Assembly: GCA_015999875.1 (NCBI GenBank)
Contig: JAECRG010000001.1
Coordinates: 171,330 to 235,329, forward strand
Source of the DNA: Candidatus Saccharimonadota bacterium
Lineage (GTDB): Bacteria; Patescibacteriota; Saccharimonadia; Saccharimonadales; Saccharimonadaceae
Direction: 5' to 3'
DNA: 64,000 nucleotides
Shown in pieces: positions 11,560 through 64,000 of the stretch. The notes beneath the pieces are model-generated. The model made no database searches. It was given only the letters and a program-made list of their open reading frames with translations, and had not been told where the DNA came from. The position numbers and the translations under genes are program-made. Numbering within the stretch: position 1 is the stretch's first letter; each line of letters begins with the position of its first letter.

Positions 11560-11601
11560 TCATACTTACTACTTTACAGCGCAAACGACACTTTTTCAAC
11601 A

Positions 11602-13254: not shown

Positions 13255-13366
13255 CTACCGTCCTCTGTTCTAAGCTTTACCTCTATGATAGCATATATGT
13301 CCATGGCCGAAGTATATTTTGCATTTAACTAGAGTTATGCTAACATAAATAGGCTACCGGTAATTT

Positions 13367-13451
13367 GCGCGAGTGGTGGAATTGGTAGACACGCTAGCCT
13401 TAGGAGCTAGTGCCTTCGGGCGTGGAGGTTCAAGTCCTCTCTCGCGTACCA
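13367..13451 (+). tRNA. tRNA-Leu (anticodon UAG), CCA encoded
   Basis: The sequence is GCGCGAGTGGTGGAATTGGTAGACACGCTAGCCTTAGGAGCTAGTGCCTTCGGGCGTGGAGGTTCAAGTCCTCTCTCGCGTACCA, with anticodon loop CTTAGGA. Confidence 0.95.
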
Positions 13452-17201: not shown

Positions 17202-18988
17202 TAGCCTTCGAGTACTTGGTTTTTCAGCGCTACGGTAAACTCATCGAGACGTGACTTGAGCTCGTCGTAGGCCTCTAGAGCTTCGTCCACATTGCTCGCA
17301 GTTGTCTCTTCATACCATTGTACATAGAGCTTGAGCTTTGGCTCAGTGCCACTTGGCCGAACGGTGACACGCCGCCTCGGATCTCCGAGTTCAAACACAA
17401 TCACATTACCGCTAATGCAGTCGACTGGAGTTACATCGCCAGTTTCGACATCTCGACGCTCAAGCGTAGTATAATCTTGCACCGCCGACACACGGTAACC
17501 CCCGAGAGTACTCGGCGTGCTAGACGTCAGCTGTTTCATAATAGTTTGCATCGTCTCGAAACCATCTGCACCGGGGAATTGCACATCAACAAGAGTCTCC
17601 TCGTAGATACCATGCTCTACGAATAGTTCGAGCAAACGAGTGTAGAGAGTTTTGTTTGCAGCTTTTAGCTCGGCCGCAGCTTCAGCCAGTGTCAGCGCAC
17701 CAGCCGCGCCATCTTTATCTCGCACATAGGTGCCCTTGATCATGCCATAGCTCTCTTCACCGCCAAGCAGAAATATCTCATCAGTTGTTTCTTTATTGCG
17801 GATAAGCTCACCTATGTATTTCATACCGACAAGCATGTTTCCATACAGTTTAACTCCATAATAATCTGTAAGCGCCTGCAGCAAATCAGTCGTAACAATC
17901 GTTTTGGCAAGGAAGTGCTTCGGCGTGAGCTTGCCGCTCTGACGTAGTCTACCTAACACATAGTCCGCGGCTAGTGCGGCTGACTGATTGCCGTTGAGAT
18001 AAACTGGCTTACCCTCATGCAGCGCAACTACGCCTATCCGGTCTGCGTCAGGATCGTTTGTGATAGCGATGTCGGCTTTTTCTGCTAGCAGTTTTTCTAC
18101 TGCCATTTCATTGGCAATAATTTCTTGCGGATTTGGTTTGCCATTGGGAATTGTCGGGAAGTTTCCGTCTGGCGTCATTTGCTCCTCTACGACCCTCACA
18201 TCTTTGAAGCCAGCCCGTTCAAGCACGGGTAGTACATTTGTCTGACCCGCTCCATGCAGTGGTGAATACACGATTGCAATATCACGGTACTCTCCCACGG
18301 CTTCGTTTACAGCCGCGTCCACGTATGCCCTATCTACGTCGTCACCGATAAGTATGATGTCTCCAGCTTGTACCGCTTCGTCAAAATCGACAGAATGAAT
18401 CTCCTGAATTTCATCAGCTTTTGCAAGGACACCTTTGTCGTGTGGCGCAACGAGCTGCGCGCCATCGCTCCAATATGCCTTGAAGCCATTGTCTGCTGGC
18501 GGGTTATGGCTTGCACTCACCACTATGCCCACAGCCGCACCCAAGTGACGGACAGCGAAACTCAACTCCGGCGTAGAACGAAAGCTATCAAAAATATATG
18601 TCTTGAACCCATTTGCCGCGCACACTTCTGCAGTAATACGACTTAGTTCCGGGGAGCTGAGTCGCGTATCACACGCAATCACAACACCTTTTTGGCGCGC
18701 CTGTTCATCAAATTCGCTTGAGTACAAACAAAGTGCTTGAGTACTCTCGCCAATCGTTACCCTATTAATTCTATTTGAGCCCAGTCCAACCATGCCGCGT
18801 CGCCCGGCAGTACCGAATTCAAGTACTTTAAAGAATGAATCTTCAAGCTCCTGCCAATTTTGGTTAGCAACAAGCTGTTCAATTTCGTTCACATACTCAG
18901 CATACTTTGGCTCGTTCAGCCATTTGGAAATATTTTCAAATGCAGCTTCCGACACATGCTGCTTCAGTGTTTGAGTATCGATTGTCAT
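17201..18988 (-). CDS. phospho-sugar mutase (phosphoglucomutase/phosphomannomutase family)
   Basis: The active-site loop SASHNPPADNGFK and the metal loop TNDPDADR are present. 595 aa. GGAGG lies upstream of the start. Confidence 0.9.
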   Translation of the reverse strand: MTIDTQTLKQHVSEAAFENISKWLNEPKYAEYVNEIEQLVANQNWQELEDSFFKVLEFGTAGRRGMVGLGSNRINRVTIGESTQALCLYSSEFDEQARQKGVVIACDTRLSSPELSRITAEVCAANGFKTYIFDSFRSTPELSFAVRHLGAAVGIVVSASHNPPADNGFKAYWSDGAQLVAPHDKGVLAKADEIQEIHSVDFDEAVQAGDIILIGDDVDRAYVDAAVNEAVGEYRDIAIVYSPLHGAGQTNVLPVLERAGFKDVRVVEEQMTPDGNFPTIPNGKPNPQEIIANEMAVEKLLAEKADIAITNDPDADRIGVVALHEGKPVYLNGNQSAALAADYVLGRLRQSGKLTPKHFLAKTIVTTDLLQALTDYYGVKLYGNMLVGMKYIGELIRNKETTDEIFLLGGEESYGMIKGTYVRDKDGAAGALTLAEAAAELKAANKTLYTRLLELFVEHGIYEETLVDVQFPGADGFETMQTIMKQLTSSTPSTLGGYRVSAVQDYTTLERRDVETGDVTPVDCISGNVIVFELGDPRRRVTVRPSGTEPKLKLYVQWYEETTASNVDEALEAYDELKSRLDEFTVALKNQVLEG

Positions 18989-31312: not shown

Positions 31313-33322
31313 ATGCATAAACCGTACATACTGGCGATTGGCGATATTGTCACAGACGCGTTCATCAAACTCAAAGACGATGAGGCAAAAGTAGAGACCG
31401 ATGAGCAGGGCAACAAGCATCTCGTCTTACCCTTTGGTACAAAACCGCCTTACGACCACGTAGATATAGTACAAGCCGTAGGACCATCACCAAATGCGTC
31501 TGTTGCTTTCTCTCGACTTGGCGCTCATTCAGGTCTCATGGCATATATGGGCGACGATATACCCGGTAAAGATATGCTCGCCTATCTTGGCGAACAAAAT
31601 GTTGATACATCGACCATCTCGGTTGCTGAAGGCATGAAATCTAACTACTGGTACGTACTGCGCTACGGTGCAGAACGAACCATTTTGGTCAAAAACGAAC
31701 AGTACGACTATAAATGGCAGGAACCAGCCCAAGTACCTGATTGGATTTATCTCAGCGCACTCGATGGTGCTTCATGGGAACTCCACATGGAGCTCCTCGG
31801 CTACCTACGCAAGCATCCCGACACGAAGCTAGTGTTTCAGCCCGGGACATTCCACTTCAAGTGGGGTGCCGAAAAACTTGCAGAAATCTACGCACGTTCC
31901 TACATGGTCTGTATGAACAAAGAAGAAGCGGCCGACGTAACAGGTCGTGACCTCAGCAATATCGAGGATTTGTTTGATGGCCTACACAACCTTGGATCAG
32001 AAGTAGTCGTAATCACCGACGGTCCACAAGGATCATATGCAAGTGATGGTAAAAAGATTATCTCAATCCCAAATTACCCCGACCCTAAGCCACCTACAGA
32101 CCGCACCGGTGCTGGTGATGCATTCGCCTCCACAATCACAACGGCGCTTGCACTCGGCGAGTCACTCGAGACAGCACTCACTTGGGCGCCTATCAATAGT
32201 ATGAATGTCTGCCAACACTTAGGCGCGCAGGCTGGGCTACTTGATAAAGAAGCAATTCTCACTCTTCTCGGCAACGCACCGGACGACTACAAGCCAACTG
32301 TTATCGCAGGGGCACACGATGCGCCCCTGGAAGATATTGCTCGCTCACTTGTCGAAAATCCCAAAGGCATCTTCGCAGCTGACGAAAGTGGAGGTAGTAT
32401 CAATAAGCGTTTCATCCAATACGGCATCGAGGATAGCGAAGAAGTCCGTCGACAATATCGCCAACTCTTCTTTACAGCTCCCGAAGTCGAGCATTATTTA
32501 AGTGGAGTGATCTTATTTGATGAAACTGCCCGCCAAGCGGCAGATAACAAACAACCGTTTCCGGAGCTACTATCCGAGCGCGGTATCATACCAGGCGTGA
32601 AGGTCGACAAAGGCATTGTTGCACTACCAGGCTTCGACGGTGAAGGGGTTACAAGTGGCCTAGATGGCCTACCTGAACGACTCGCCGAATATCACGCCCT
32701 GGGTCTTCGTTTTGCCAAGTGGCGTGCCGCGTTTACAGTCACCGATGCACTACCAAGTGACGCGGCGATTGCCGCAAACGTACATGCACTTGCACGCTAC
32801 GCACTTGACTGCCAAAATGCCGGCATCGTACCTATCGTAGAGCCGGAAATTGTACACGAGGGTGATTTCAGCATTGATCGCGCCCAGGAAGTCACTGCGC
32901 GCATCCTTGATGCGCTTTTCGAGGAACTTGCGCTTCTTGGAGTCAATCGAAAAGCAATTATCCTAAAAACGAGCATGGTACTTGCAGGCAGCAAACAAGA
33001 ACAATCATCCGCCGAGGCAGTCGCCAAGGCTACTGTTTCTACGCTAGTGCACCATGTTCCTCATGATATCGCAGGTATTGTCTTCTTGTCTGGAGGCCAA
33101 ACACCAGAACAAGCTACTGCGAACTTACAGGCTATTACAAATCTCGGTGAGCAAGCATGGCCGATCACGTTTAGCTTCTCTCGAGCTCTTCAAGAACCAG
33201 TGCTAGAAGTATGGGGCGGCCAACCAGAGAATACAGAACATGCTCAAGCTACTTTCACCGGTCTAGCCAAAGCAAACAGTGACGCGACAGTTCAACAAGA
33301 TACAATCAAAACAATCTTTTAG
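31313..33322 (+). CDS. fusion protein: PfkB-family sugar kinase (N-terminal, about 320 aa) plus class I fructose-bisphosphate aldolase (C-terminal, about 340 aa)
   Basis: AGGAGGTGG lies 7 nt upstream. The kinase part has ILAIGDIVTD and DRTGAGDAFAS. The aldolase part has ADESGGSINKRF, GVKVDKG, PIVEPEI, ILKTSMV (Schiff-base Lys context) and VFLSGGQ. Confidence 0.85.
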   Translation: MHKPYILAIGDIVTDAFIKLKDDEAKVETDEQGNKHLVLPFGTKPPYDHVDIVQAVGPSPNASVAFSRLGAHSGLMAYMGDDIPGKDMLAYLGEQNVDTSTISVAEGMKSNYWYVLRYGAERTILVKNEQYDYKWQEPAQVPDWIYLSALDGASWELHMELLGYLRKHPDTKLVFQPGTFHFKWGAEKLAEIYARSYMVCMNKEEAADVTGRDLSNIEDLFDGLHNLGSEVVVITDGPQGSYASDGKKIISIPNYPDPKPPTDRTGAGDAFASTITTALALGESLETALTWAPINSMNVCQHLGAQAGLLDKEAILTLLGNAPDDYKPTVIAGAHDAPLEDIARSLVENPKGIFAADESGGSINKRFIQYGIEDSEEVRRQYRQLFFTAPEVEHYLSGVILFDETARQAADNKQPFPELLSERGIIPGVKVDKGIVALPGFDGEGVTSGLDGLPERLAEYHALGLRFAKWRAAFTVTDALPSDAAIAANVHALARYALDCQNAGIVPIVEPEIVHEGDFSIDRAQEVTARILDALFEELALLGVNRKAIILKTSMVLAGSKQEQSSAEAVAKATVSTLVHHVPHDIAGIVFLSGGQTPEQATANLQAITNLGEQAWPITFSFSRALQEPVLEVWGGQPENTEHAQATFTGLAKANSDATVQQDTIKTIF

Positions 33323-50393: not shown

Positions 50394-50816
50394 CTATATT
50401 GCTCCTACATCTTTGAGTGCTTGTTTGAAACCAGCGAGTGCACGACGCGCAGTATCATATGTAACATGTACGTCTGGTTCGTGAGCGATTTGATTTCGCA
50501 GCTTATGTGCTGCCCACGTGCTATTGCGGCTACTGAGTCGAGATGAAGCAGATTTGAGTCGCTCACCCATGGTCGTGCCTTTGTACCCAGATTCTTTGAG
50601 AGATTGGTCAAGTAGCTTATCGGCGTTAAGTACCGAAAGATGATAACTCGCGGGCTGATCACGCGCAAGAGAGCGCTCAATAGTGAGCCATTTGGTCCGA
50701 TATTTATCCTGATTGAGCTGACGACCACCTTTTGTATAGGTAATGATTACCAATACCAAGCCCCCCACAATCAAGATTGCAGCAAAAAATACAAGCAGGC
50801 TAAGGTTGCTATCCAT
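50394..50816 (-). CDS. membrane-anchored small protein with RNxxxH (HEPN-like) motif, inserted between gatA and gatB
   Basis: The N-terminal TM is LLVFFAAILIVGGLVLVIITY. AHKLRNQIAHE carries the motif. ATGGATAG overlaps the gatA stop, and its own stop lies 1 nt before the gatB ATG. Confidence 0.65.
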   Translation of the reverse strand: MDSNLSLLVFFAAILIVGGLVLVIITYTKGGRQLNQDKYRTKWLTIERSLARDQPASYHLSVLNADKLLDQSLKESGYKGTTMGERLKSASSRLSSRNSTWAAHKLRNQIAHEPDVHVTYDTARRALAGFKQALKDVGAI

Positions 50817-52532: not shown

Positions 52533-55043
52533 CTATTGAGCAGGCGGGTACTGGGAAGGTGGCTGAGTCTGAGGTTCAGGCTGCTGCGTTGGAGGCTGAG
52601 CCATAGGAGTCGGATTCGCATAAGTCGATTGCTGCGATTGCTGCCAGCTAGTAGGCTGCGGTAAGTTCGAAAAGGGCGCAAGGGTTTGCGGCGGCTGCGT
52701 CTGTTGGACCGAGGCTTGATGCTGCCACTGAGTGGGGTCAATATACTGGCCCTGTGCGAGTTGCCCGTATTGCGTTTCAGTGCGCGGCTTAACAAACAGC
52801 CTAAGTGCAATCTTAGCAATTGCCAGTAGTACAAAAAGTCCTGCGCACACAGCTAATAGCACCTGTAGTAGCGATACAATAGTATTCATGGTAGATGTAT
52901 CCGTAGCCGTGCTGTACTGTGACTTACTATAGGCGGCAAATTGTGCGGCAAGATAGTTTTGCGGATACAAGCTTGCAGCAGTGTTAAATGATTGCGTTGC
53001 TTGGCGGTAATTTCCATTAGCGAGCTCACCAATCGCTTTATTCCAAGTTTTTGTCGAATCACTTGATGATTGAAGGGTAATGTTGCGCTGCTTTACTAGC
53101 TCGGAAATCCCTGCCGTGTCGCGGATCACAGTACTAGCAAAACATTTACGGTCAGGACAATTCAGATTATTGTATGTGGCCATTCCAATCACCCTACCTG
53201 CATCGTCTATTGCCGGCGCACCTGCAAGGCCTGCGTGCGATGAAGTCGCGATGGAACGCACCTTTTGACCTTTGCTCGAATTAAACGTCTGGGCTACCGT
53301 GCCCGAGCGATACAGGGGTGTCTCACGAAACTGAGCAGATGCAAGCGAACCAAATGCATACATCGGCAAGCCAGCCATGCGAACTGTACTCTTGTCTGCT
53401 ATATTTCCACCGCTAGCTCCAAGCTGCAGAGCAGGATATAATCCACTTTTGCCGACCTTGAGTAGTGCTGCATCAGATCCAACACTCTCACCGGCAAAGA
53501 TTTGTTGTTGCGTGACATTTGTTGAATAGTCCTTAGCTTCAATAGCAGCCTCGACTACTGTATCTGTATACGCAAACGAGCTTGACCCGTCGCCATTTTC
53601 GTTGACGACAATTGGCTTATCTGAAAGCTGTACGGCATATGCATACTTCTCTTTCATAATAGCAATATCCTCAGGCGCAATAAGTGTACTAAGCGCATTC
53701 ACCTTAGCTATAATGTCTTGATTGCGCTCTTCAACGCCTGCCATCAGCGCATCCGCATCAGTTTGCATAATACTGCGGGATTCTACTAAATAGTCGAGTA
53801 TTCGCTGTAGCCGATCAACAACTTGAGATGCGTTTGGTGCGTTAGTGATATATGCCGACACTGCCTCTTGCGGCTTCACCTGCACAACACTTCCTTCTGT
53901 GGCGACGAGGCCATCTCGCGAGACGAAGAATCCAGTGCCAGCCTTGTCTACACACGCACCTGTTAATGTAGGACCATCACCTCCGTTCGGTAATGTTAGT
54001 TTAATATCTGCACAATAAACCGTGCCGATACGCACCACAGAAGGAGCCATCGATGCCATAAGCTTAAAGTCCTGTGTAGAACTAATATAGGAAGGTACAC
54101 TTGAACCAGCAAGTAGCTTTTGCCCCTGTGGGTCTTTGTTTACTTCCTCAGATTCAGGCTCATTAGCAACCGCTTCTTCGTCACCCTTGTTTTCAAGCAT
54201 TGCCGCATCTTTAGCAGCGTCTTTTGCATCCATCAGAACTGCTGCATCAAGTCCTTCGTATTTCACATTAGATAAGACGTATTCAAGCTGAGGTACGACT
54301 GCAAAATTTGAATCACGTATATTATTGATGCACGCGACATAGGGACGATCACTCTGCACCGTCATATAACAGTCTTCGCGTCTTTCGGTCGTCACGCCAT
54401 ACGTTTCACTTTTGTAAGTAAAAGTGACTTTACGATAATCGATAGAATTAATATTTTTTACTTCTGCGTCCGAAGATTCGACAAGCTTATCTTTTTCATG
54501 CGCCGCCACCGTCTCTTTAACCAGCATATCTATTTTCGAAAGATCACTATACTCTTTTTTTGTAGCAAGTGCGTCCCAATAACTTTTTGATAGGCTAGAC
54601 GTAACACGCAGCTCTGGTGAACTCAGAGTCACTTCATTTCGAGTAGCTTCGCTCGTCTCCACCGGTCTCACGCGCATGATAGTATACGGACGCTCTTCGT
54701 TCAGGTCCGTACTCGAAAAAGTCACCTCTTCCGCAAAACCAAAACCTTCAAGTTCGCGCGCATCATACGGAATCTGTATACCTAATGTCGAATGAATAAA
54801 ACGCGACTGTGGCGCAGCATCCGTTGCAACCAATACGCCAGCTACACCAGCTTGCGTTTTACCCGTATCGGATGTTGTTATACCCATAAAATACATAACC
54901 GCCCACGCTATAGCGGCAATCACAGCGATACTCGCGAATGCAATCATACCCCAATTGAGGTATGTACTTAGACCCCTCTTACGCTTAACTGGAGCTGGCT
55001 GCATCGGTGACTGTGGCGTTATATATGGCTGTTGTGGTTGCAT
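52533..55043 (-). CDS. two-TM protein with Q/P-rich termini and a trypsin-like (S1C-type) domain lacking catalytic His and Ser
   Basis: GTGFFVSRDGLVATEGSVV aligns with the usual ...TNxHVV; DAALLKV aligns with the Asp region; GLAGAPAIDDAGRVIGM aligns with the usual GNSGGP. The two TMs are MIAFASIAVIAAIAWAVMYF and LLQVLLAVCAGLFVLLAI. Confidence 0.7.
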   Translation of the reverse strand: MQPQQPYITPQSPMQPAPVKRKRGLSTYLNWGMIAFASIAVIAAIAWAVMYFMGITTSDTGKTQAGVAGVLVATDAAPQSRFIHSTLGIQIPYDARELEGFGFAEEVTFSSTDLNEERPYTIMRVRPVETSEATRNEVTLSSPELRVTSSLSKSYWDALATKKEYSDLSKIDMLVKETVAAHEKDKLVESSDAEVKNINSIDYRKVTFTYKSETYGVTTERREDCYMTVQSDRPYVACINNIRDSNFAVVPQLEYVLSNVKYEGLDAAVLMDAKDAAKDAAMLENKGDEEAVANEPESEEVNKDPQGQKLLAGSSVPSYISSTQDFKLMASMAPSVVRIGTVYCADIKLTLPNGGDGPTLTGACVDKAGTGFFVSRDGLVATEGSVVQVKPQEAVSAYITNAPNASQVVDRLQRILDYLVESRSIMQTDADALMAGVEERNQDIIAKVNALSTLIAPEDIAIMKEKYAYAVQLSDKPIVVNENGDGSSSFAYTDTVVEAAIEAKDYSTNVTQQQIFAGESVGSDAALLKVGKSGLYPALQLGASGGNIADKSTVRMAGLPMYAFGSLASAQFRETPLYRSGTVAQTFNSSKGQKVRSIATSSHAGLAGAPAIDDAGRVIGMATYNNLNCPDRKCFASTVIRDTAGISELVKQRNITLQSSSDSTKTWNKAIGELANGNYRQATQSFNTAASLYPQNYLAAQFAAYSKSQYSTATDTSTMNTIVSLLQVLLAVCAGLFVLLAIAKIALRLFVKPRTETQYGQLAQGQYIDPTQWQHQASVQQTQPPQTLAPFSNLPQPTSWQQSQQSTYANPTPMAQPPTQQPEPQTQPPSQYPPAQ

Positions 55044-55071: not shown

Positions 55072-57042
55072 CTAGCGTTTTGCGCGAATCTCGGAGATCA
55101 CATCACGTAGTTCAGCAGCCTTTTCGAACTCGAGATTGGCGCTTGCGAGATTCATCTGCGCGGTCAGCTCTTTCTCGAGGTTTGCATACTCGTCTTTTGG
55201 TATCTTTTTCAAGTCGAGCTTAGGTGCAGTATCTTCTTTTTGAGGAATAATAGCACGAAGGCCTTCATCAATTGCCTTGTCGATACCCTGCGGTGTTATG
55301 CCGTGTTCGACATTATATGCCTCTTGTATAGCGCGTCGACGATCTGTCTCATCCATCGCTGCTTGCATAGAACGGGTAATCCTGTCACCGTACATGATCA
55401 CGCTTCCCTCAACGTGGCGAGCCGCACGTCCGATAGTCTGAATTAACGCGCTTTCGCTACGTAAAAATCCTTCTTTATCAGCATCCATGATCGCGACCAA
55501 GCTTACCTCAGGAAGGTCCAAGCCTTCACGAAGAAGGTTTATGCCGACAAGTACATCAAATACGCCCAGGCGTAGATCTTTTAATATATCACCGCGCTCT
55601 AGGGTGTCAACTTCACTATGAATGTATGCAGTCTTGATATTTAGCTCGAGCAAATACGCGCTGAGATCCTCGGCCATACGCTTAGTAAGTGTCGTTACAA
55701 GAACTCGTTGCTGCTTTGCAATTCGCTCACGAATCTCTGCGATCAAATCATCCACCTGTCCCTTGATAGGCTTGATAGTGATCGGAGGATCAAGCAAGCC
55801 TGTCGGGCGAATTACCTGCTGGGCAGGTGGCGGACTATGCGCAAGTTCGTACTCACCAGGTGTTGCGGAGACATATATAGCCTGATTTATATGAGTGTCA
55901 AATTCTTCGAAGCGCAGTGGGCGATTATCCATAGCGCTTGGCATGCGAAATCCGTGTTCGACAAGCACTTCCTTGCGTGCGCGATCGCCATTATACATAC
56001 CACGCACTTGCGGCAATGACTGATGACTCTCGTCGACAAGAAGCAGCCAGTCGTCTGGAAAGTAATCTATCAGAGTAGCAGGCTGTTCACCAGGCTCACG
56101 GTTGCTTAGGTATCTACTATAATTCTCAATACCCTTCACAAAACCGGTCTCCTCGAGCATCTCAATGTCGTACTTAGTACGCTGCGAGAGTCGTTGTGCC
56201 TCAAGAAATTTATCGTGTGTCTCAAACCACTCGAGGCGCTCAGTAAATTCATGTTTGATACCCTCAATCGCATGTGCCAATCTATCTTTTGGCGTCACAT
56301 AGTGACTACTCGGAAATATAGTGACACTCGCAGGCTCATCTAAAATCTCACCCGTCAGCGGATCAATGCGAGTAATTCGGTCTACTTCGTCGCCAAAAAA
56401 TTCCAAACGATAGGCAGTGTCTCCATTGGCCGGAAATACATCTACTACATCACCTTTGACTCGAAACGTACCGCGATGAAAATCTACATCGTTACGCTTG
56501 TATTGGATATCTGTCAAAAGACGTACGAATTTGTCTTGTTGTCGACGTTCGCCACGCTTGACCGTAATTGACATTTCTGAATACGCATCTGGCGAGCCAA
56601 TACCATAGATACAGCTCACGCTCGCTACAATTATCACGTCACGCCGTGTAAGTAGCGCGGATGTGGCCGCATGACGAAGACGATCGATCTCTTCGTTGAT
56701 AGCCGAATCCTTCTCTATATAAGTATCGCTACTGGCGATGTACGCTTCTGGCTGATAATAGTCAAAGTAGCTTACAAAATAATGTACTTCACTGTCTGGG
56801 AAAAATGCCTTGAACTCGCTATATAGTTGTGCTGCCAAAGTCTTATTGTGTGCCAGAACCAAAGTTGGTACCTGCCTATCCTGAATAATATTCGCCATTG
56901 TGAACGTCTTGCCACTTCCTGTCACACCGAGCAGTGTCTGCTCACGTTCACCAGCGTTAAGTCCTTCAATCAATTGAGCAATAGCCGTCGGTTGATCGCC
57001 AGTCGGCTGATATTTTGTCTCTAAGCGAAATTTTTGGCTCAT
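55072..57042 (-). CDS. uvrB: excinuclease ABC subunit B
   Basis: GVTGSGKT, helicase motifs and a C-terminal UVR domain ([10 protein letters not shown]) are present. Confidence 0.95.
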
Positions 57043-57048
57043 ACACTC

Positions 57049-57057
57049 AGTATAGCA
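57049..57057 (-). promoter_or_regulatory. extended -10 TGCTATACT, 6 nt from uvrB ATG
   Basis: The minus strand reads TGCTATACT-GAGTGT-ATG. Confidence 0.55.
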
Positions 57058-57065
57058 CCGAGTAG

Positions 57066-57674
57066 TTAGCCTTGTCCTGCACGCTTCTTACTGACATGGC
57101 TATCGTCAGCATCGTGCATAAAATCTGCATACTTTGCATCAAGTCGGGCAATCACCTGCTCAACTAGTCTATCAGGGTCAGTGTCATAGATAATGTCTTT
57201 TGCACCAGGAGCTTCAATGTTGTCGAGAAGTGTTTTAGTGTAGTCTGCCAATCCACCACTGCCGAGTAGTACGCCACAGACCTTGCGACTTTCGAGAGCT
57301 GTCGATAGCTCATGGAGACTACCCATACGCCCACCCACCGTGATGATCGCATCGCTACTTCGCACCAAGTGCACATCACGCCCGACATACTCCATACCCG
57401 TGAAATTGATATAATCAAATTCCTTTGTTGGCAATCGGTATGTAGCGACATGCTCCCTAAAAGAGCTCGCTGGAGAGAAGCCTATTGATATGCCACGCTT
57501 TCCCTCTACGCTCACTGCACCCATTGCCGCGTAATGAGGCAAGCCTACAGTCGCGCCCGTTGTCAATGTCTTACCTCTTTTTGAAATTGATTTACCAAGT
57601 TCGTACGCAAGTTGATGTGATGCTTGAACCGTCTCACCACTTGCTGCACCCGACACACATATCTGATATCTCAT
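57066..57674 (-). CDS. LOG / TIGR00725-like Rossmann protein (putative nucleotide N-glycosidase family)
   Basis: [19 protein letters not shown] and [10 protein letters not shown] (fitting the GGxG[TS]xxE LOG motif) are present. Confidence 0.6.
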
Positions 57675-58129
57675 ATTTTACGCTCCTTGTTTACCTGTAT
57701 ATACTTTGTAATTTTCTGTAATAATTCCGGATGTGCTGCCCAGTCCTTGTAGCGACTTACGATCTGATCAGCAAGTGCAGCCTGGAGATGCTCCAGGCTC
57801 CTGTCTTCAAATCTCCGCGACTCTTCGTTATCGGTAACTACGTCGTCATGATGGAATGACACCACCTCCCCACCCACTACAAGTCCTGCGTACCGAGTGG
57901 ACTCTCCAAGTACATCTTCGTGTACGCGAAGAGCGTGATAGAGTTCTCGGGCAGTTGCATCACCCTCGAGACCCATCTCACGAATAATAGTGTGTGCGAT
58001 ATGCAATATATCTCCGACAAGTTTAGCGTCAATAGCCTGAGTTCCTGTCGCTTTTTCAAGATCATCAAACGCGATCGACAAAAGTTTGTCTGCGGGTCTG
58101 CCGAGCAATGTCATGAGCGCTCTTGACAT
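57671..58129 (-). CDS. hypothetical protein (152 aa)
   Basis: It has a 4-nt overlap with the downstream LOG-like gene and a 1-nt overlap with the upstream kinase gene. I recognised no motif. Confidence 0.55.
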   Translation of the reverse strand: MSRALMTLLGRPADKLLSIAFDDLEKATGTQAIDAKLVGDILHIAHTIIREMGLEGDATARELYHALRVHEDVLGESTRYAGLVVGGEVVSFHHDDVVTDNEESRRFEDRSLEHLQAALADQIVSRYKDWAAHPELLQKITKYIQVNKERKI

Positions 58130-59097
58130 TAGTAAGGCTTCTCCTCCAGCGGCATGTCATGAAGTTCGGTGTTCTTGTGCAATATGCCTTCTTTTGCGCC
58201 AAATTTTGTCACTACTGACGTAGAGTTGGCACTAGCAAAAACAATCGCCTCTCGTAGACTCTTGCCTAATATCCATTGGCTCAAGAAGCCACTTGCGAAT
58301 GCGTCACCAGCGCCTGTACGATCTACTACTGGAACATCTTCATACATGCCTGCGCTCACAATCGTCTTACCATCACTTGCAACAACGCCCCTTGGGCCAT
58401 CGCTTACTATTGCGACAGGTACATAATGCAACGCATGGCGAACAAGCTCTTCAAGAGTTTCTCCGTCAACGAGCATTTGCATCTCTTCTTTATTCACGCA
58501 CAACACATCGATACTACTTAAAAGAGCCTTGAGTTTTTGAGGATCAGCAAGCTCGGGGCCAGCGGGGTTTAGCATCACTTTTGCGCCTGCCGACTCCGCC
58601 TTATCGACAATCGCACGTAGCAGCTCGATGCCACCTAAAGCAAGTGACGTAGGGTACACCCAATCAACGTCGTTTATCGCATCGAGATTCAGATCTATAT
58701 TATCTGCGCCAGTTGAGACACCTCGATTATTAAGAATAGTTCGCTCGCCGTCAGTCGCAATCAAGATGTTTGAGTAACCTGCACGATACTTCTCCCGTCG
58801 TACTACATGCGAAGTGTCGACACCTTCCGCGTCAAGATCGTGTAGTACTGTTTCCGATGCGGGATCGTGACCTAAAGTCCACATATAACTACTGTGGATT
58901 CCTTGACGTGCAAAGGTTACTGCGACATTACTTGCGTTGCCTCCAGTCGCAAATACAATATCCTCTACTTCCATCTTCACTCCAAGGGGCAGGTGGGTGT
59001 AGGCGACCTTGCCCTCCATCTGCGGACTAAACTCGTCGCTTTTTAAGAAAACGTCCTGTGTCGCTTTGCCTATTGCTAGTATTCTCGGTGTGCTCAT
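58129..59097 (-). CDS. PfkB-family sugar/sugar-phosphate kinase
   Basis: ILAIGKATQDVF, GGNASNVA and DRTGAGDAFASGF are present. It is paralogous to the N-terminal half of 31313..33322. AAGGA SD lies upstream. Confidence 0.85.
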   Translation of the reverse strand: MSTPRILAIGKATQDVFLKSDEFSPQMEGKVAYTHLPLGVKMEVEDIVFATGGNASNVAVTFARQGIHSSYMWTLGHDPASETVLHDLDAEGVDTSHVVRREKYRAGYSNILIATDGERTILNNRGVSTGADNIDLNLDAINDVDWVYPTSLALGGIELLRAIVDKAESAGAKVMLNPAGPELADPQKLKALLSSIDVLCVNKEEMQMLVDGETLEELVRHALHYVPVAIVSDGPRGVVASDGKTIVSAGMYEDVPVVDRTGAGDAFASGFLSQWILGKSLREAIVFASANSTSVVTKFGAKEGILHKNTELHDMPLEEKPY

Positions 59098-59268
59098 GCT
59101 AATTTCCTTTTTATTTTACCGCCCATATCTGACATGTAGTATATCATACCGCTTATGGAGTGTGCATCTGAGCGAAAAAGCCCGACGCTGCGCGACAAAT
59201 CTACCACTCGAAAATAGAATCGCTAAGCACACTAGCGTCGCTTGGTAAAATAAGTCGAAGCGTCGTAT

Positions 59269-60180
59269 CTAAACGATAGCTTTTCCAGCGCTACCAAACG
59301 CCTGAATTTTTTCTTCCACTACTGCCTGCACCGCTCCATACACTTCAGGCATAAGTTTTACTACAGCATACTCATCAGGATGCTCTGCCAGCACTTTTTC
59401 AAGTGTCTTTCTAAATACGTAGCGCATATCACTATTGATATTGATCTTACTTACACCAATTTTTGCTGCATCTTCGAAGAAATGAGATGGAGTACCACTA
59501 CCTCCATGCAAGCTAATACCACAATCGATTGAACCGCGAATCCTCTCAAGCAGCTCGAGATCGAGCTCTTTCGGCACAGGATACTTACCGTGTAGATTGC
59601 CGATGGCTGCCGCAAACGTATCAATACCCGTGGCTTCCACGAATGACTTTGCACCCTCTGGCGTACTGAATGTCTTCTTGATTTCATCGTAATCGATATT
59701 TTCAGTATGAACATTGCTGCTACCACCAAAATAATGCGGTTCACTTTCGACGAGAGCCCCAGTAAACTTAGCATAGTTTACTACTTCGAGTGTCTTTGAG
59801 ATGATTTCTTCTTCGGTAGCAGCATGATTTGCCTGCGAGATGTCGATATGAATAAACTCATATCCTGCATCTATCGCACGCTTGCAGTCATCGACAGACG
59901 GACTATGATCAAGGTTGAGATATACCTCAACACCATATTCCTTTTTATAGTTATCAACCATATCACGAATGTTTTCAAGACCCATGGCTTTGACCTCGCC
60001 ATCACTCACTTCGATAAGTACAGGTGACCGCAGCTTCTGAGCTGCGCCCACAATAGCGATGAGGGTCTCTTGGTTATCTATATTAAACGCACCGACGGCA
60101 AAGTGCTGCTGCTTAGTACGTTGGTACAAATGTCGAGCTCGTGTAGTATTGTCTCGGATTTCGCTAATTGTCAGTCCCAT
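59269..60180 (-). CDS. fba: class II fructose/ketose-bisphosphate aldolase
   Basis: Motifs seen: FNIDN, NLDHS, GNLHG and LHGGSG. Confidence 0.85.
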   Translation of the reverse strand: MGLTISEIRDNTTRARHLYQRTKQQHFAVGAFNIDNQETLIAIVGAAQKLRSPVLIEVSDGEVKAMGLENIRDMVDNYKKEYGVEVYLNLDHSPSVDDCKRAIDAGYEFIHIDISQANHAATEEEIISKTLEVVNYAKFTGALVESEPHYFGGSSNVHTENIDYDEIKKTFSTPEGAKSFVEATGIDTFAAAIGNLHGKYPVPKELDLELLERIRGSIDCGISLHGGSGTPSHFFEDAAKIGVSKININSDMRYVFRKTLEKVLAEHPDEYAVVKLMPEVYGAVQAVVEEKIQAFGSAGKAIV

Positions 60181-60184
60181 TATG

Positions 60185-61183
60185 TTAACCCTCTCTGTGA
60201 TATTGCGCGGTAGTGTTGATAAATTCTTGAATGACGGGCATCATCTTTTCCCCGGTAAGACCAAAATAATCCAATAGTTCGTTTGGCGCACCAGACTCCC
60301 CAAAGCGATCGTACATACCAATGCGCTTTAGGGGTGTTGGCAGTTGCTCGCTCAGCAATTCGGCCACAGCGCTACCAAACCCTGCAGCAACCTGCGCCTC
60401 TTCAGCCGTGACTACACGACCCGTCTTTCGTGCACTTTTGAGCAGAGTTGCTTCATCAAGCGGTTTTATAGTTGGCACATGAACTACCTCCGCAGAGATA
60501 CCATGTTCTTCAAGCAGCTTTGCAGCCTTCAGTAGCTGATAAGACATCGTGCCAGTACCGAAGAGTGAAATATCATGGCCTTCACGCAGTACATACGCCT
60601 TGCCAATTTCAAAAGGTGATTCATCGGTACTAAATATTGGGGTCTTTTCTCGCGCAAGACGCAAGTATGTCGGACTACCATTTTCGGCAATAAGCTGTGT
60701 AGCTTTTTCTGCCTCCACGGCATCACCAGGTATCACGACCACCATACGGGGCAACACTCGCATCAGTGCGATATCTTCAAGCATCTGATGCGTGGCTCCA
60801 TCAGGACCAACACTCACCCCTGCGTGAGAGCCTACAATCTTAACAGGCTGCTCATTGAGCGTAGCGGTGGTGCGAATCTGCTCCCAGTTGCGGCCGGGAC
60901 TAAATGCTGCATAACTCGATGTGAATGGAATTTTGCCTGCTCGAGCAAGGCCGCTTGCAACCGTTACAAGATTTTGCTCGGCTACGCCAATTTCTACAAA
61001 ACGTTCTGGAAAGGCTTCTTTAAAATGATGCATCTGTGTACTTTCGGTCAAATCAGCACACAGTGCTACGATACTTTCGTTTGCCTCACCTGCTTTTTTC
61101 AGACCACGGCCGAAACCAGCTCGTGTAGGCTCTTGGGCTACATCGTCGGAAAATATATCGTCTCTCAGTGGATAATGTGTCAT
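60185..61183 (-). CDS. transketolase, C-terminal (pyrimidine-binding) subunit
   Basis: FVEIGVAEQN is present. This 332-aa half follows the N-terminal-half gene. Confidence 0.9.
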   Translation of the reverse strand: MTHYPLRDDIFSDDVAQEPTRAGFGRGLKKAGEANESIVALCADLTESTQMHHFKEAFPERFVEIGVAEQNLVTVASGLARAGKIPFTSSYAAFSPGRNWEQIRTTATLNEQPVKIVGSHAGVSVGPDGATHQMLEDIALMRVLPRMVVVIPGDAVEAEKATQLIAENGSPTYLRLAREKTPIFSTDESPFEIGKAYVLREGHDISLFGTGTMSYQLLKAAKLLEEHGISAEVVHVPTIKPLDEATLLKSARKTGRVVTAEEAQVAAGFGSAVAELLSEQLPTPLKRIGMYDRFGESGAPNELLDYFGLTGEKMMPVIQEFINTTAQYHREG

Positions 61184-61185
61184 CT

Positions 61186-62043
61186 TTATTCTCCTGCCTT
61201 AATCTTGCCATCAAGCGTGCGTAGTTTCTTGAGTGCATCCTTGGCCTGTTCGTGGTTTGGCGGTGCGCCGTGCCATTTGTAGTCATATTCCATAAAATCA
61301 ACTCCCTTACCCGGGATAGTGTGCGCAATAATAACACTTGGCTTATTAGTGATAGCGCGCGCCATGCTCGCTGCATCACAGATGCTCTCGATATTGTGAC
61401 CATCAATCTCTTGGACATGCCAGCCGAAACTTTCCCACTTACCACGTAGGTCTTCGAGTGGCATCACATCTTCCGTACTACCATCGATTTGGATGTTATT
61501 GCGGTCTATAAAGCCAATAAGCTGACTTAGCTTATATTTACCGGCAAACATCGCAGCTTCCCAGATATTGCCTTCATTAAGTTCGCCATCGCCCATCACC
61601 GTATATACAAATCGATGAGGTTGTTTGTCCATATACTGTAGTGCATATGCAACTCCTGATGCCTGGCTCAAACCACTACCCAAAGGCCCGCTAGTGTTTT
61701 CAAGACCTGGTAATTTTGTGCGCTCTGGGTGCCCCTGCAAGCGGCTACCGAGCTTTCGCAGGGTCGTAAGTTCTGGCCTATCAAAAAAACCTGCCTCAGC
61801 CATAGCTGCGTATTGAACTGGTACTGTGTGGCCATTGCTAAGGAAGAAGTAGTCACGCGCGTCCCAATCAGGATTTTTTGCATCAAAATTCATAATTTCG
61901 AAATACAGCGCAGCGAAAATATCGGCAAGGCCCAGCGGACCAGCACTGTGCCCACTCCCGGCAGCTTCAAGCATTGTGATAATATCTTTACGAATTGTGT
62001 TTGCTTTTTCGTCGAGCTGCGTCAACGTATACTGCTGCTTCAC
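61186..62043 (-). CDS. transketolase, N-terminal (TPP-binding) subunit
   Basis: GHSAGPLGLADI and GDGELNEGNIWEA are present. Confidence 0.9.
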   Translation of the reverse strand: MKQQYTLTQLDEKANTIRKDIITMLEAAGSGHSAGPLGLADIFAALYFEIMNFDAKNPDWDARDYFFLSNGHTVPVQYAAMAEAGFFDRPELTTLRKLGSRLQGHPERTKLPGLENTSGPLGSGLSQASGVAYALQYMDKQPHRFVYTVMGDGELNEGNIWEAAMFAGKYKLSQLIGFIDRNNIQIDGSTEDVMPLEDLRGKWESFGWHVQEIDGHNIESICDAASMARAITNKPSVIIAHTIPGKGVDFMEYDYKWHGAPPNHEQAKDALKKLRTLDGKIKAGE

Positions 62044-62690
62044 TAGAGCACTCCTTGTTTATTGATTTCGTCGACGAGTTGCGTATATGTCACCTCTGCA
62101 TTTACGGCCTTCTGAATCGCACTACCTACGTTTAGAACACTCACACCGCCTTGTGTGAGTGTATAGGCATTGTCCACGTTTACGCCGCCGTCCCAGCCTA
62201 TTTCCGCCTCTGGGTTGATTTGCTTAATGAGGCGTACTTTCTCAAGCTGCATCAGGTTCGCCGTACCCCCCTGGTGTCCAAGGTCTCCAGTAAACACCAT
62301 CACATGATCTGCTTGGCGAATCAGATTAGCGACAGACTCTGGCACAGTAGGACGCAGAAGTGCGATGCCGGATTTGATATTGTACTGCTTCAAGGTAGCC
62401 ATGACAGATGGCAATTGCTCGGGATCCGCCTCGGCATGAAAAATCACCAGGCTTGGTTTGAGCTGCACAAGTGTTTGCAGGTGCTCAACTGGCCGAGCAA
62501 CCATTGCATGAATATCTATTTCCCAACCTTCTGGCCACCAAAGTTCATTTTCCGGCACGAGAAATACAGGTGCAAATTCTCCATCACTAAGATCAATATG
62601 TACCCTTTGAGCAAAAGGCTGGAGTATATCTACCTGCTGCTTATATTGCTCTGCATTTTCTGCCGTCAAAGTCGGCGCAATTAAACTCAT
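62043..62690 (-). CDS. rpe: ribulose-phosphate 3-epimerase family protein
   Basis: HIDLSDGEFAP, DIHAMV, IFHAE and WDGGVN are present. The sequence is somewhat divergent. Confidence 0.75.
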   Translation of the reverse strand: MSLIAPTLTAENAEQYKQQVDILQPFAQRVHIDLSDGEFAPVFLVPENELWWPEGWEIDIHAMVARPVEHLQTLVQLKPSLVIFHAEADPEQLPSVMATLKQYNIKSGIALLRPTVPESVANLIRQADHVMVFTGDLGHQGGTANLMQLEKVRLIKQINPEAEIGWDGGVNVDNAYTLTQGGVSVLNVGSAIQKAVNAEVTYTQLVDEINKQGVL

Positions 62691-62693
62691 GCT

Positions 62694-63146
62694 CTAGACC
62701 TCATCAATCTGCGCGTTACGTCGCTTATACCTTGGTGCATCTGCAAATGGCGTACTAAGCCATGTGTCGATAATCGCCTTCCATTCAACTTCGTCTTTCT
62801 CAAGTATACGAGATGGCAAACATAGCACATTGCTATTATTGTCGTTGCGAGTCATCTTTGCTTCATACTCGTCCCAAATTACGCTCGCTCGTATACCTCG
62901 AAATCGGTTTGCCGCCATCGCCATACCCTGGCCGCCGCCACAGAGCAAGATAGCACGCGGATCATCCCTATCATCTTCCCCGAGAACTTTTAATGCAGCA
63001 AGCTGCGCGAACTGCGGAAAGTCATCTTCCGGATCGAGCGACCTATCGCCGACATCTTCTACGTCATAATCGCGCTTAGCAAGATATGCAAATACTTGTT
63101 CTTTCATGTGAAAGCCATTGTGGTCAGAGCCCAGGAAAATCTTCAT
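62694..63146 (-). CDS. rpiB: ribose-5-phosphate isomerase B
   Basis: MKIFLGSDHNGF, LLCGGGQGMAMAANR and NVLCLPSR are present. Confidence 0.9.
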   Translation of the reverse strand: MKIFLGSDHNGFHMKEQVFAYLAKRDYDVEDVGDRSLDPEDDFPQFAQLAALKVLGEDDRDDPRAILLCGGGQGMAMAANRFRGIRASVIWDEYEAKMTRNDNNSNVLCLPSRILEKDEVEWKAIIDTWLSTPFADAPRYKRRNAQIDEV

Positions 63147-63152
63147 GCCTTA

Positions 63153-63181
63153 AGTATAAGCGTTATCTCTCCTCTAATCAA
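63153..63181 (-). promoter_or_regulatory. promoter TTGATT-N17-TATACT, 6 nt from rpiB ATG
   Basis: The minus strand reads TTGATTAGAGGAGAGATAACGCTTATACTTAAGGCATG. Confidence 0.6.
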
Positions 63182-63228: not shown

Positions 63229-64000
63229 ATGACAAAACAGCAAAAAATTGGTGTGATTTTGGCGCAGGTAGGTACGCCAGAAGCACCCACGAAACAAGCC
63301 CTCAAGCCATACCTCCGAGCATTTCTCTCAGACGAGAGAATTATAGATTCTCCTCGATGGATGTGGCTACCAATACTACATGCCATCGTATTACAGCGGC
63401 GACCCGCTAAAATAGCAAAGCATTTCGAAGAAATCTGGACAGATAAAGGTTCACCCCTACTCTCTACATCGCTCGCACAGGTGAACGGCGTACAGAAACG
63501 CCTTGGTTCAAAATTTGTCGTCAAACTAGGCTTTGCCTATGCAGAACCCAGCATGAACACTGCGATGCAGGAGTTGCACGAAGCTGGAATCACGCGTGTC
63601 ATCACTATTCCGATGTTCCCTCAGTATTCTACGACCACCACTGCTTCTGTATACGATGAGATAATGCACCATGCACTCGGTCGACAAAAACGACGCGGCA
63701 AGCCTATCAAAAAATACTCACCCGCGCTGCGATTTGTTGAGCCCTTTTACGATGACCCTGCGTACATCGATGTGTTAGCGAACAATATCAAGCAGCAAAT
63801 CAAGAAGCTAGCTCACGCCCCAGACAAGATACTACTCAGTTACCACGGAATACCAAAAAGTTATGTAGATGAAGGTGACCCTTACCCGGAGCACTGCGAG
63901 ACGACAACCAAGCTACTTGTCAAAAAGCTTGGTTGGAAAAAAGATCAGTACAAAATGACGTATCAATCTCGCTTTGGGCGCGCAGAGTGGCTCCAGCCAT
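63229..64000 (+). CDS. hemH: ferrochelatase (3' end outside window)
   Basis: My own translation gives MTKQQKIGVILAQVGTPEAPTKQALKPYLRAFLSDERIIDSPRWMWLPILHAIVLQRRP...MFPQYSTTTT...SYHGIPKSY...YQSRFG. The frame stays open to the window end, so it is absent from the supplied ORF track. Confidence 0.85.
   Translation, partial: MTKQQKIGVILAQVGTPEAPTKQALKPYLRAFLSDERIIDSPRWMWLPILHAIVLQRRPAKIAKHFEEIWTDKGSPLLSTSLAQVNGVQKRLGSKFVVKLGFAYAEPSMNTAMQELHEAGITRVITIPMFPQYSTTTTASVYDEIMHHALGRQKRRGKPIKKYSPALRFVEPFYDDPAYIDVLANNIKQQIKKLAHAPDKILLSYHGIPKSYVDEGDPYPEHCETTTKLLVKKLGWKKDQYKMTYQSRFGRAEWLQP

Follow-up and report, generated by a model that had tools for sequence, protein, structure and literature searches.

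A PfkB-family kinase and a class II aldolase as candidate substitutes for phosphofructokinase and transaldolase in a conserved carbon cluster of Saccharimonadales

The 64-kb window analysed here (64,000 nt; positions 171,330–235,329 of contig JAECRG010000001.1, forward strand, from the Candidatus Saccharimonadota bacterium assembly GCA_015999875.1) carries at 57066–63146, on its minus strand, a run of eight genes in which enzymes of pentose phosphate metabolism are joined by a class II aldolase, a PfkB-family kinase (PfkB1), a small protein named orf152 and a protein of SLOG cluster 4 (SLOG4). This region is an order-wide conserved core carbon cluster of Saccharimonadales (TM7), which are Saccharibacteria, bacteria of very small size that live on other bacteria. 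Judged from gene content and gene order, PfkB1 and the class II aldolase might, within this cluster, substitute for the missing PfkA-type phosphofructokinase (PFK) and the missing transaldolase – a reading that we regard as evenly balanced between right and wrong. If it is true, the core carbon map of a large group of host-dependent bacteria needs to be redrawn, and the ribose of host nucleotides becomes a plausible carbon source.

Genome papers on the candidate phyla radiation (CPR) report that phosphofructokinase and often transaldolase are missing, and invoke a ‘pentose phosphate shunt’ – which, by our own carbon balance, cannot turn hexose into triose without further enzymes. Parts of the present proposal are already published, namely the prediction that the kinase is a PFK (2025), the absence of transaldolase (2018) and the sedoheptulose-1,7-bisphosphate (SBP) pathway as such; a PfkB-based SBP bypass in CPR bacteria or Saccharibacteria is not proposed in the literature that we searched.

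Gene content and order of the cluster

Read from its upstream end, the cluster begins with rpiB (62694–63146, minus strand, as are all cluster genes; 150 aa), encoding ribose-5-phosphate isomerase B, which scores 139.9 bits against PF02502 and 141.4 bits against NF004051, over the latter’s cut-off of 135. Next comes rpe (62043–62690; 215 aa), whose product belongs to the ribulose-phosphate 3-epimerase family (PF00834, 83 bits) but, as its 79.8 bits against the equivalog TIGR01163 remain under the cut-off of 212.6, is a divergent member. Transketolase is split in two: the N-half, tktN (61186–62043; 285 aa, GTG start), with the thiamine pyrophosphate-binding part (PF00456, 199.8 bits), covers positions 10–281 of the 627 in model NF004559, and the C-half, tktC (60185–61183; 332 aa), with the pyrimidine-binding and C-terminal domains (PF02779, 131 bits; PF02780, 127 bits), covers positions 316–625.

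The next gene, fba (59269–60180; 303 aa), encodes a class II ketose-bisphosphate aldolase of the fructose-bisphosphate (FBP) type. This protein scores 229.2 bits against PF01116 (cut-off 25.5), 224.5 against TIGR01859 (cut-off 343) and 208.9 against the cbbA ketose-bisphosphate aldolase subfamily TIGR00167 (cut-off 215.6), with 182–198 bits against models for tagatose-bisphosphate aldolase. Beyond a 171-nt spacer (59098–59268) follow pfkB1 (58129–59097; 322 aa; PF00294), orf152 (57671–58129; 152 aa), which has no Pfam or NCBIfam family and whose relatives were reached by profile search, and the gene for the TIGR00725-like SLOG4 protein (57066–57674; 202 aa; PF18306). Downstream lies uvrB (55072–57042, minus strand).

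Packing is tight throughout. On the upstream side there are a 3-nt gap between rpiB and rpe, a 1-nt overlap between rpe and tktN, and gaps of 2 nt between tktN and tktC and of 4 nt between tktC and fba; on the downstream side, pfkB1 overlaps orf152 by 1 nt and orf152 overlaps the SLOG4 gene by 4 nt, with 23 nt between the latter and uvrB. A first-pass annotation of this DNA, made from its letters alone, had listed the same eight open reading frames (ORFs), all of which are present where it placed them and whose identities Pfam and NCBIfam uphold; its gaps or overlaps of 0–4 nt, its 171-nt spacer and its 1-nt and 4-nt overlaps likewise match the coordinates, but the 88-nt gap that it described near the aldolase stop is nowhere in the sequence.

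Homologues of PfkB1 and SLOG4 come from Candidatus Saccharimonadales. In a sample of one genome per species – 80 loci, with kinase identities of 68–89% – the order rpiB–rpe–tktN–tktC–fba–pfkB is kept in 80/80 wherever flanks exist, pfkB1 adjoins the aldolase gene in every one of them, and uvrB lies downstream in nearly all. The conservation of gene order in relatives, which the first-pass annotation had singled out as a point to check, therefore holds across 80 of 80 Saccharimonadales species, which sets the cluster well apart from a random assembly of genes. The division into two separate units, one on either side of the spacer, did not survive: the fba–pfkB spacer varies in length among relatives, shrinking to nearly nothing in oral ones and to 0 nt in Southlakia epibionticum, where the two genes abut, so that the two ‘units’ are one block in these relatives. 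In Southlakia, the gene for glyceraldehyde-3-phosphate dehydrogenase (GAPDH) directly adjoins rpiB.

Missing enzymes and the fitness of mutants in a relative

Neither a transaldolase nor a PfkA was detected in the window: phmmer searches of its six-frame translation with TalB, FsaA and PfkA of Escherichia coli returned nothing below E = 2, and none appeared in Pfam scans of nearly all gene-like ORFs of at least 110 aa (a few of which were taken from precomputed annotations). The earlier statement that transaldolase is present neither in the cluster nor elsewhere in the window is borne out by both searches. Transaldolase is also reported absent from all other Saccharibacteria genomes analysed by Starr (2018), a study whose focal genome, like those of many CPR members, is stated to lack canonical PFK. 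For Southlakia, whose genome is closed, the words ‘transaldolase’, ‘phosphofructokinase’, ‘bisphosphatase’ and ‘phosphopentomutase’ appear nowhere in the annotation tables, whether these were built from sequence or from structure, nor is ‘ribokinase’ a gene name in them; what they do list is a single PfkB-family sugar kinase, which is PfkB1, and a single aldolase, which is the class II enzyme. In the window, a 595-aa protein of the phosphoglucomutase/phosphomannomutase family is encoded at 17201–18988 (minus strand); some long members of this family are phosphopentomutases, which would provide another route to ribose-5-phosphate.

Fitness data come from transposon sequencing (Tn-seq) of Southlakia epibionticum, given as normalised reads at T0, T1 and T2 (PMC10633639 Table S1). 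Kinase and aldolase mutants are lost in parallel, with 815, 344 and 46 reads for the former and 782, 124 and 19 for the latter; the corresponding values are 295, 75 and 10 for rpe, 118, 31 and 3.7 for rpiB, and 406, 28 and 1.8 for triose-phosphate isomerase (TPI). In terms of calls, TPI becomes essential, and the aldolase, the kinase, rpe and rpiB give growth defects. A role in glycolysis alone does not account for such losses.

The PfkB1 kinase and its likely substrate

PfkB1 belongs to the PfkB family (PF00294, 156.7 bits; cut-off 25.8), and its GXGD motif, TGAGD265, aligns with D256 of E. coli Pfk-2 and D255 of the ribokinase RbsK. It stays under the cut-off of every NCBIfam equivalog: the ribokinase models TIGR02152 and NF008353 give 110.2 bits (cut-off 299.65) and 82.1 bits (cut-off 341), the model for ATP-dependent ribose-1-phosphate kinase 105 bits (cut-off 330), and the subfamily model for Pfk-2 and 1-phosphofructokinase (1-PFK), TIGR03168 (cut-off 216.4), 68.5 bits, compared with 38.7 bits for PfkB2, a second kinase described below, so that both kinases fail it.

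Homologues of PfkB1 are labelled ‘ribokinase’ in their source annotations, and the first-pass annotation had counted a ribokinase among its options. In an alignment at about 24% identity, the ribose ligands N14, D16, G42, K43, N46, A98, I110, I112, E143 and D255 of RbsK correspond to T13, D15, G53, N54, N57, S109, I121, N123, L154 and D265 of PfkB1, which means that five of the ten (N14, K43, A98, I112 and E143) are replaced. Together with the sub-cut-off model scores, this test of ligand residues rules out a canonical ribokinase.

The likeness to Pfk-2 is of a different kind. Besides belonging to one family and having the catalytic GXGD Asp in common, the two proteins share a lysine of the lid strand: the position of Pfk-2 Lys27 – a lid lysine that acts across the dimer (PMC6429617) – is held by K41 in PfkB1 and by K44 in PfkB2, at equal distances from the GG motif and the invariant Asn. 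No equivalent of Lys27 is found in FruK, RbsK, YdjH or PsuK. The motif-I lysine, in turn, is missing from PfkB1 (N54) and from PfkB2 (P, C or N), as it is from Pfk-2. Overall identity between PfkB1 and Pfk-2 is about 19%.

The nearest solved structure to PfkB1 is that of E. coli YdjH (E = 2.9e-21 by sequence, and also the top Foldseek match), annotated as an L-glycero-L-galacto-octuluronate kinase, whose gene lies 4 nt from that of YdjI, an octuluronate-1-phosphate aldolase of the class II FBP aldolase family; the kinase product is the aldolase substrate. Identity to PfkB1 is, however, only about 23–25%, and YdjH acts on keto-uronic acids and lacks the Lys27 equivalent that PfkB1 has. A substrate could not be read from the structure model, as its Foldseek matches – YdjH, ribokinases, IolC-type kinases and 2-keto-3-deoxygluconate kinases – do not discriminate.

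An independent prediction comes from the oral species Nanosynbacter lyticus TM7x, where TM7x_02415, which carries a ribokinase annotation and belongs to the operon of the aldolase gene, has been predicted to encode a PFK of the pfkB type and goes up with glucose (PMC12815258, ISME J 2025), from which TM7x still makes ATP. To go by the published description, TM7x_02415 and TM7x_02420 are like the pfkB1/fba pair of the oral-clade loci (L057–L083), which differ from the window in having no gene X (see below) or orf152 in the slot. The TM7x paper mentions neither sedoheptulose nor the pentose phosphate pathway, and an SBP bypass and the LOG-type neighbour were apparently not considered in it. The link drawn in the first-pass annotation between the kinase, the aldolase and the pentose phosphate genes is supported by the 80/80 synteny, by the parallel depletion in Southlakia and by this PFK prediction of 2025. 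We propose that PfkB1 is an ATP-dependent ketose-phosphate 1-kinase acting on fructose-6-phosphate (F6P) and possibly on sedoheptulose-7-phosphate (S7P).

A second kinase–aldolase pair, gene X and the orf152 domain

In addition to the cluster, the window holds a gene that had escaped earlier notice, PfkB2::FBA-I, at 31313–33322 (plus strand), 27 kb away. Its 669-aa product is a fusion of a PfkB kinase (about aa 1–325; PF00294, 110 bits) with a class I FBP aldolase (aa 339–661; PF00274, 371.8 bits, E = 3.5e-111), the latter scoring 422.8 bits against the FBP aldolase equivalog NF033379, over its cut-off of 250. An independent assembly also has the full-length fusion, as do, at 80–83% identity, three relatives (L086–L088), and one relative that has it also has a free-standing orf152. 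With this fusion in the window, there are two kinase–aldolase pairs to be assigned.

Two NCBIfam families of PfkB–aldolase fusions, NF047869 (5-dehydro-2-deoxygluconokinase/DKGP aldolase) and NF041633 (KHG/KDPG aldolase/sugar kinase), follow the same joined logic. In these, to go by the product names and established knowledge, the kinase makes the substrate of the aldolase; what sets PfkB2::FBA-I apart from them is that the kinase has an FBP aldolase of class I (Schiff-base, PF00274) as its partner. A fusion of a PfkB kinase with a class I FBP aldolase was not met in any paper, though no search was aimed at such a fusion.

The probable source of PfkB2 is a gene of about 500 codons – here called gene X – that stands between pfkB and the SLOG4 gene in many species. 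The first ~150 residues of its product are homologous to orf152, and the rest is a PfkB2 kinase, about 30% identical to PfkB1; the PfkB2 part of the fusion and the gene X kinase domain share 57% identity. Judged by these relationships, orf152 is the detached N-terminal accessory domain of the second kinase: the window’s clade kept only this N-domain of gene X in place, and the kinase domain is now in PfkB2::FBA-I. Another rearrangement of gene X is seen at L044:10968-13720, where a second kinase domain directly follows pfkB1 and orf152-like segments, split in two, lie about 1.6 kb further on.

More distant PfkB2-type kinases (41–46% identity) stand head-to-head with a class II aldolase gene, and in one case (L092) also near tktC, tktN, rpe and rpiB; no LOG, SLOG4 or orf152 relative was found beside these distant kinases (L089–L093). 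Whether fused or as a neighbour, a PfkB kinase is, then, linked again and again with an FBP-type aldolase and with pentose phosphate genes.

Identity between the orf152 protein and the N-domain of the X proteins (~500 aa) is 32–49%, and the profile search collected 271 relatives of several types: free-standing proteins of about 150 aa, N-domains followed by PfkB2, a split form of about 415 aa and a split form fused to LOG. In the ~415-aa proteins (P0315, P0343, P0275 and P0360), which have no Pfam match, two orf152-like halves flank an insert of about 260 aa; one member of this family has a tandem orf152 copy in front, and in P0360 the longer split form is joined to a canonical LOG domain. Function could not be derived from structure: the AlphaFold 2 (AF2) model of orf152 is confident (predicted local distance difference test, pLDDT, 88.7), yet Foldseek found nothing in the PDB under E = 1.7, and sequence searches of the PDB and Pfam were also empty. 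Evolutionary rates set the gene apart from its neighbours, with nonsynonymous divergence (dN) of 0.23–0.29 for orf152, 0.08 for pfkB and 0.05–0.06 for the SLOG4 gene (dN alone is given, and no dN/dS ratio, as synonymous sites are saturated), and its ORF stays intact across lineages of this divergence. By these features, orf152 is a real gene for an uncharacterised domain that fusions tie both to PfkB2 and to LOG; this domain family was not found in the searched literature.

A slot occupied by SLOG4 or LOG

SLOG4 had been labelled LOG/TIGR00725-like, a label that stands as far as membership of the SLOG4 family is concerned (PF18306, 90.2 bits; cut-off 26.3) but not at the level of the more specific models, as the protein scores 55.5 bits against TIGR00725 (cut-off 106.9) and 31.3 bits against the LOG model TIGR00730 (cut-off 96.35), with no match to PF03641. 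Having failed the TIGR00730 family model, SLOG4 is not a strict member of the LOG family. It nonetheless shares with the nucleotide 5′-monophosphate phosphoribohydrolases of the LOG/PpnN family, such as the LOG of Corynebacterium glutamicum (CgLOG), the SLOG superfamily and a Rossmann-like fold, the two differing in that LOG belongs to PF03641/TIGR00730 and SLOG4 to cluster 4, PF18306. Compared with the LOG motif PGGxGTxxE, its segment G114-GRMGSLH-E122 reads GGxxGSxxE: two glycines, a Ser in place of Thr and the Glu are kept, and the Pro and one Gly are lost. R99 lies 23 residues before E122, which is the spacing of the catalytic pair R99/E122 in CgLOG, though the HMMER alignment sets R99 two positions off. 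Across 120 protein clusters SLOG4 is at least 84% identical and 202 aa long (203 aa in one of the 120), and its conservation exceeds that of the kinase. In Southlakia, a further paralogue of SLOG cluster 4 is encoded beside a phosphoribosyltransferase-like gene (SEML1_0423/0424; PMC10633639 Table S2).

Among the 71 loci with enough downstream sequence, the slot before uvrB is occupied by SLOG4 in 58 and by a canonical LOG in 13, and by both in none. Where read, the canonical LOG is about 256–261 aa long (L016:12515-13300, L025:12528-13298) and passes the TIGR00730 cut-off (130.9 bits in L016, 145.2 bits in L025). Taken together with gene X, four states of the cluster can be distinguished: X with SLOG4 (27 loci), no X with SLOG4 (20 loci, the oral clade), X with LOG (13 loci) and the N-domain only with SLOG4 (11 loci, which include the window). 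In the oral clade, the slot has neither gene X nor orf152, and the SLOG4 gene starts about 24 nt after the kinase gene. Since a canonical LOG replaces SLOG4 in place and the two never occur together, the cluster context argues for a LOG-like job of SLOG4. Literature on PF18306, TIGR00725 and LDcluster4 amounted to one mention of PF18306 in a general protein-family preprint, with no characterised member, and the LOG/SLOG4 exchange was not found in the searched literature.

The proposed route and its alternatives

In the proposed route, RpiB, Rpe and the split transketolase would interconvert pentose phosphates, and PfkB1 would phosphorylate ketose phosphates at C1 with ATP, F6P being the likeliest substrate and S7P a probable second one. 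The class II aldolase would then cleave the bisphosphates – FBP to glyceraldehyde-3-phosphate (GAP) and dihydroxyacetone phosphate (DHAP), SBP to erythrose-4-phosphate (E4P) and DHAP – for an overall balance of 3 pentose phosphates + ATP giving F6P + 2 GAP + DHAP. SLOG4 would probably hydrolyse nucleoside monophosphates (NMPs) to base and ribose-5-phosphate (R5P), feeding scavenged nucleotides in, and PfkB2, fused to its class I FBP aldolase, would form a second kinase–aldolase pair in the window lineage. What we infer from genes and their order comprises all substrate assignments, the S7P/SBP step, the direction in which flux runs and nucleotides as the source of R5P. An S7P/SBP bypass is plausible on these grounds; a flux from pentose to triose fits with an ATP-dependent kinase and with the absence of a bisphosphatase from the Southlakia tables, and R5P would most simply be released from scavenged NMPs by a LOG-type enzyme.

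The SBP route is established in Entamoeba and in cellulolytic clostridia (PMC12203962): Entamoeba histolytica, Clostridium thermosuccinogenes and Acetivibrio thermocellus have no transaldolase, a PFK-type enzyme acts on S7P, and FBP aldolase converts SBP into E4P and DHAP. Their kinase, which belongs to the PfkA superfamily, depends on PPi and works reversibly, whereas the Saccharibacteria candidates, known from their genes, are ATP-type proteins of the ribokinase-like PfkB family.

A number of observations weigh against this route. The absence of tal and pfkA, as far as this genome is concerned, is that of its 64-kb window. The ribokinase and ribose-1-phosphate kinase models outscore the 1-PFK/Pfk-2 model for PfkB1 (110 and 105 versus 68.5 bits), and the 6-phosphate ligands Arg29 and Arg90 of Pfk-2 are not conserved in PfkB1 or PfkB2: the Arg29 position is E43 in PfkB1, that of Arg90 is R105 in the window’s PfkB1 and Q in other PfkB1 sequences, and PfkB2 is variable at both. 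In the AF2 model of PfkB1, moreover, pLDDT is below 50 in the lid segments 16–53 and 108–126, where specificity is set. The second kinase–aldolase pair leaves the F6P and S7P roles ambiguous between the pairs, and the phosphoketolase listed in the Southlakia tables could take pentoses without an SBP step. In the Southlakia Tn-seq, the transketolase halves are depleted only 2.5–5.6-fold and GAPDH is undepleted, which is hard to square with a simple energy pathway from pentose to lactate; the SLOG4 gene and its paralogue are both non-essential and undepleted – and the paralogue may hide the phenotype of the SLOG4 gene in the cluster. A dispensable SLOG4 and GAPDH, a mild transketolase phenotype and a phosphoketolase therefore call for caution about a simple energy pathway. 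As for the link to a LOG-type enzyme made in the first-pass annotation, it is favoured by the presence of SLOG4 or LOG in 71 of 71 slots and by the fusion of the split orf152-like form to LOG, but the dispensability of the SLOG4 gene speaks against it.

The scores of PfkB1 also suit a different arrangement, in which it would be no phosphofructokinase but a ribose or nucleoside kinase working with the LOG-like protein (turning nucleosides via NMPs into base and R5P, or ribose into R5P), the aldolase would act on FBP only, and pentoses would exit via transketolase and phosphoketolase, bypassing SBP altogether. Its best NCBIfam models are indeed those for ribokinase and ribose-1-phosphate kinase, its homologues carry the ‘ribokinase’ label, the oral-clade SLOG4 gene begins only some 24 nt past the kinase gene, and Southlakia has a phosphoketolase, with neither ‘phosphopentomutase’ nor ‘ribokinase’ among the gene names of its tables. 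We nonetheless consider such a kinase unlikely: the two scores lie far under their cut-offs of 299.65 and 330, half of the ribose ligands of RbsK have other residues in their place, kinase mutants in Tn-seq are depleted in step with those of the aldolase and not with those of the dispensable SLOG4 gene, the paralogue PfkB2 forms one polypeptide with an FBP aldolase, and the TM7x gene is induced by glucose. Alternatively, work might be divided between the two pairs, with the PfkB2::class I aldolase fusion as glycolytic PFK and FBP aldolase, leaving S7P and SBP, or tagatose- or other ketose-phosphates, to PfkB1 and the class II aldolase. The aldolase scores can be read in this way, as the fusion aldolase is well over the class I cut-off (422.8 versus 250 bits) and the class II enzyme is under all FBP aldolase equivalog cut-offs, with tagatose-bisphosphate models scoring almost as well; distant PfkB2-type kinases, too, pair with a class II aldolase (an observation made with PfkB2 as query, PfkB1 having been searched for within Saccharimonadales). 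Yet the one PfkB-family sugar kinase and the one aldolase of the Southlakia tables are PfkB1 and the class II enzyme, and the oral-clade slot has no gene X although TM7x makes ATP from glucose, so that the F6P step must there be within reach of PfkB1 with the class II aldolase, and a strict division of this kind seems improbable.

Equally improbable, in our view, is that the cluster is inherited housekeeping synteny with no pathway logic, SLOG4 being a nucleotide or cofactor binder like molybdenum cofactor (Moco) carrier protein or YpsA, with no part in sugar metabolism, whose gene just happens to stand between those of the kinase and UvrB. The dispensable SLOG4 gene would be explained, as would its failure to reach the TIGR00725 and TIGR00730 cut-offs; among its relatives in the PDB are a Moco carrier protein and functionally uncharacterised proteins, and uvrB is held equally tightly in synteny though functionally unrelated. 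What such an inheritance leaves unaccounted for is that a canonical LOG takes the same slot in 13 loci, never alongside SLOG4; that a longer split orf152-like form is fused to LOG in another protein; that SLOG4 keeps a candidate catalytic Arg/Glu pair and stays at 84% identity or more throughout the order; and that its gene overlaps orf152 by 4 nt, whereas uvrB has a leaderless-type promoter of its own.

Substitution of PFK and transaldolase by PfkB1 and the class II aldolase can be extended to a broader, tentative scheme, which is rather unlikely to hold in full: Saccharibacteria, and perhaps other CPR bacteria, would run a dedicated nucleotide-to-triose route made up of LOG or SLOG4, freeing R5P from NMPs scavenged from the host, a transaldolase-free pentose phosphate pathway and PfkB kinases with aldolases, environmental lineages would split F6P and S7P between two such pairs, and orf152 would provide the physical or regulatory link between the LOG-type enzyme and the kinase. 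Such a route, if true, would explain how CPR genomes without PFK and transaldolase close their central carbon metabolism. Independent handles on function are offered by the fusion of kinase and class I aldolase, the orf152 domain and the LOG/SLOG4 exchange, and both Southlakia and TM7x are by now open to genetic manipulation.

Transcription signals and neighbouring genes

A promoter-like site upstream of rpiB, TTGATT-17-TATACT (63153–63181, minus strand; a consensus match only), ends with its TATACT box 6 nt before the ATG, and rpiB has no Shine–Dalgarno (SD) sequence. In a scan of all gene starts of the window, eleven genes, uvrB and rpiB among them, have a –10 box (TATACT, TATAAT or TACAAT) 6–9 nt before the start codon and no SD, and operon-internal genes do have an SD; further starts of this leaderless type are those of tig, of the ORF at 3656–5179, of radA-like and pilB-like genes and of dnaE. 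The leaderless-type promoter that the first-pass annotation had seen at rpiB is credible because these eleven genes share the geometry while operon-internal genes carry an SD: the rpiB transcript is probably leaderless, and leaderless transcription looks common in the genome. With general leaderless transcription, boundaries of the unit can be placed before rpiB and before uvrB, where a promoter-like site, AGGACA-18-TATACT with a TG (57049–57078, minus strand; again a consensus match), marks the downstream end and the start codon of uvrB follows 6 nt past the –10 box.

The 171-nt spacer contains a weak, terminator-like hairpin (59237–59221) with a T-run after it, then a promoter-like site, TGCACA-17-TATACT (59166–59138), and an SD, AAGGA (59109–59105), 7 nt before the pfkB1 ATG, so that the promoter and SD previously assigned to the spacer are both there, as consensus matches only. 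A riboswitch or other known RNA in the spacer was looked for and discarded, with no Rfam match at E values up to 1; over the whole window, the Rfam scan returned two tRNAs only.

Divergently from the cluster, upstream of rpiB, lie a gene of the ferrochelatase family and a DUF454 gene (about 63229–64000, plus strand, truncated by the window end), which are also found at L001:4459-5869; a ferrochelatase is unexpected in so reduced a genome. On the other side of the cluster, a 140-aa ORF without an assigned family lies between gatA and gatB (50394–50816, minus strand), and uvrB is followed by a gene for an 836-aa protein (52533–55043, minus strand) with Pro/Gln-rich ends and a weak Trypsin_2 match. 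Finally, a 550-aa FAD-linked oxidase (PF01565, PF02913) is encoded at 11473–13451, between two tRNA-Leu genes; from its domains, our guess would be an enzyme of the D-lactate dehydrogenase type.

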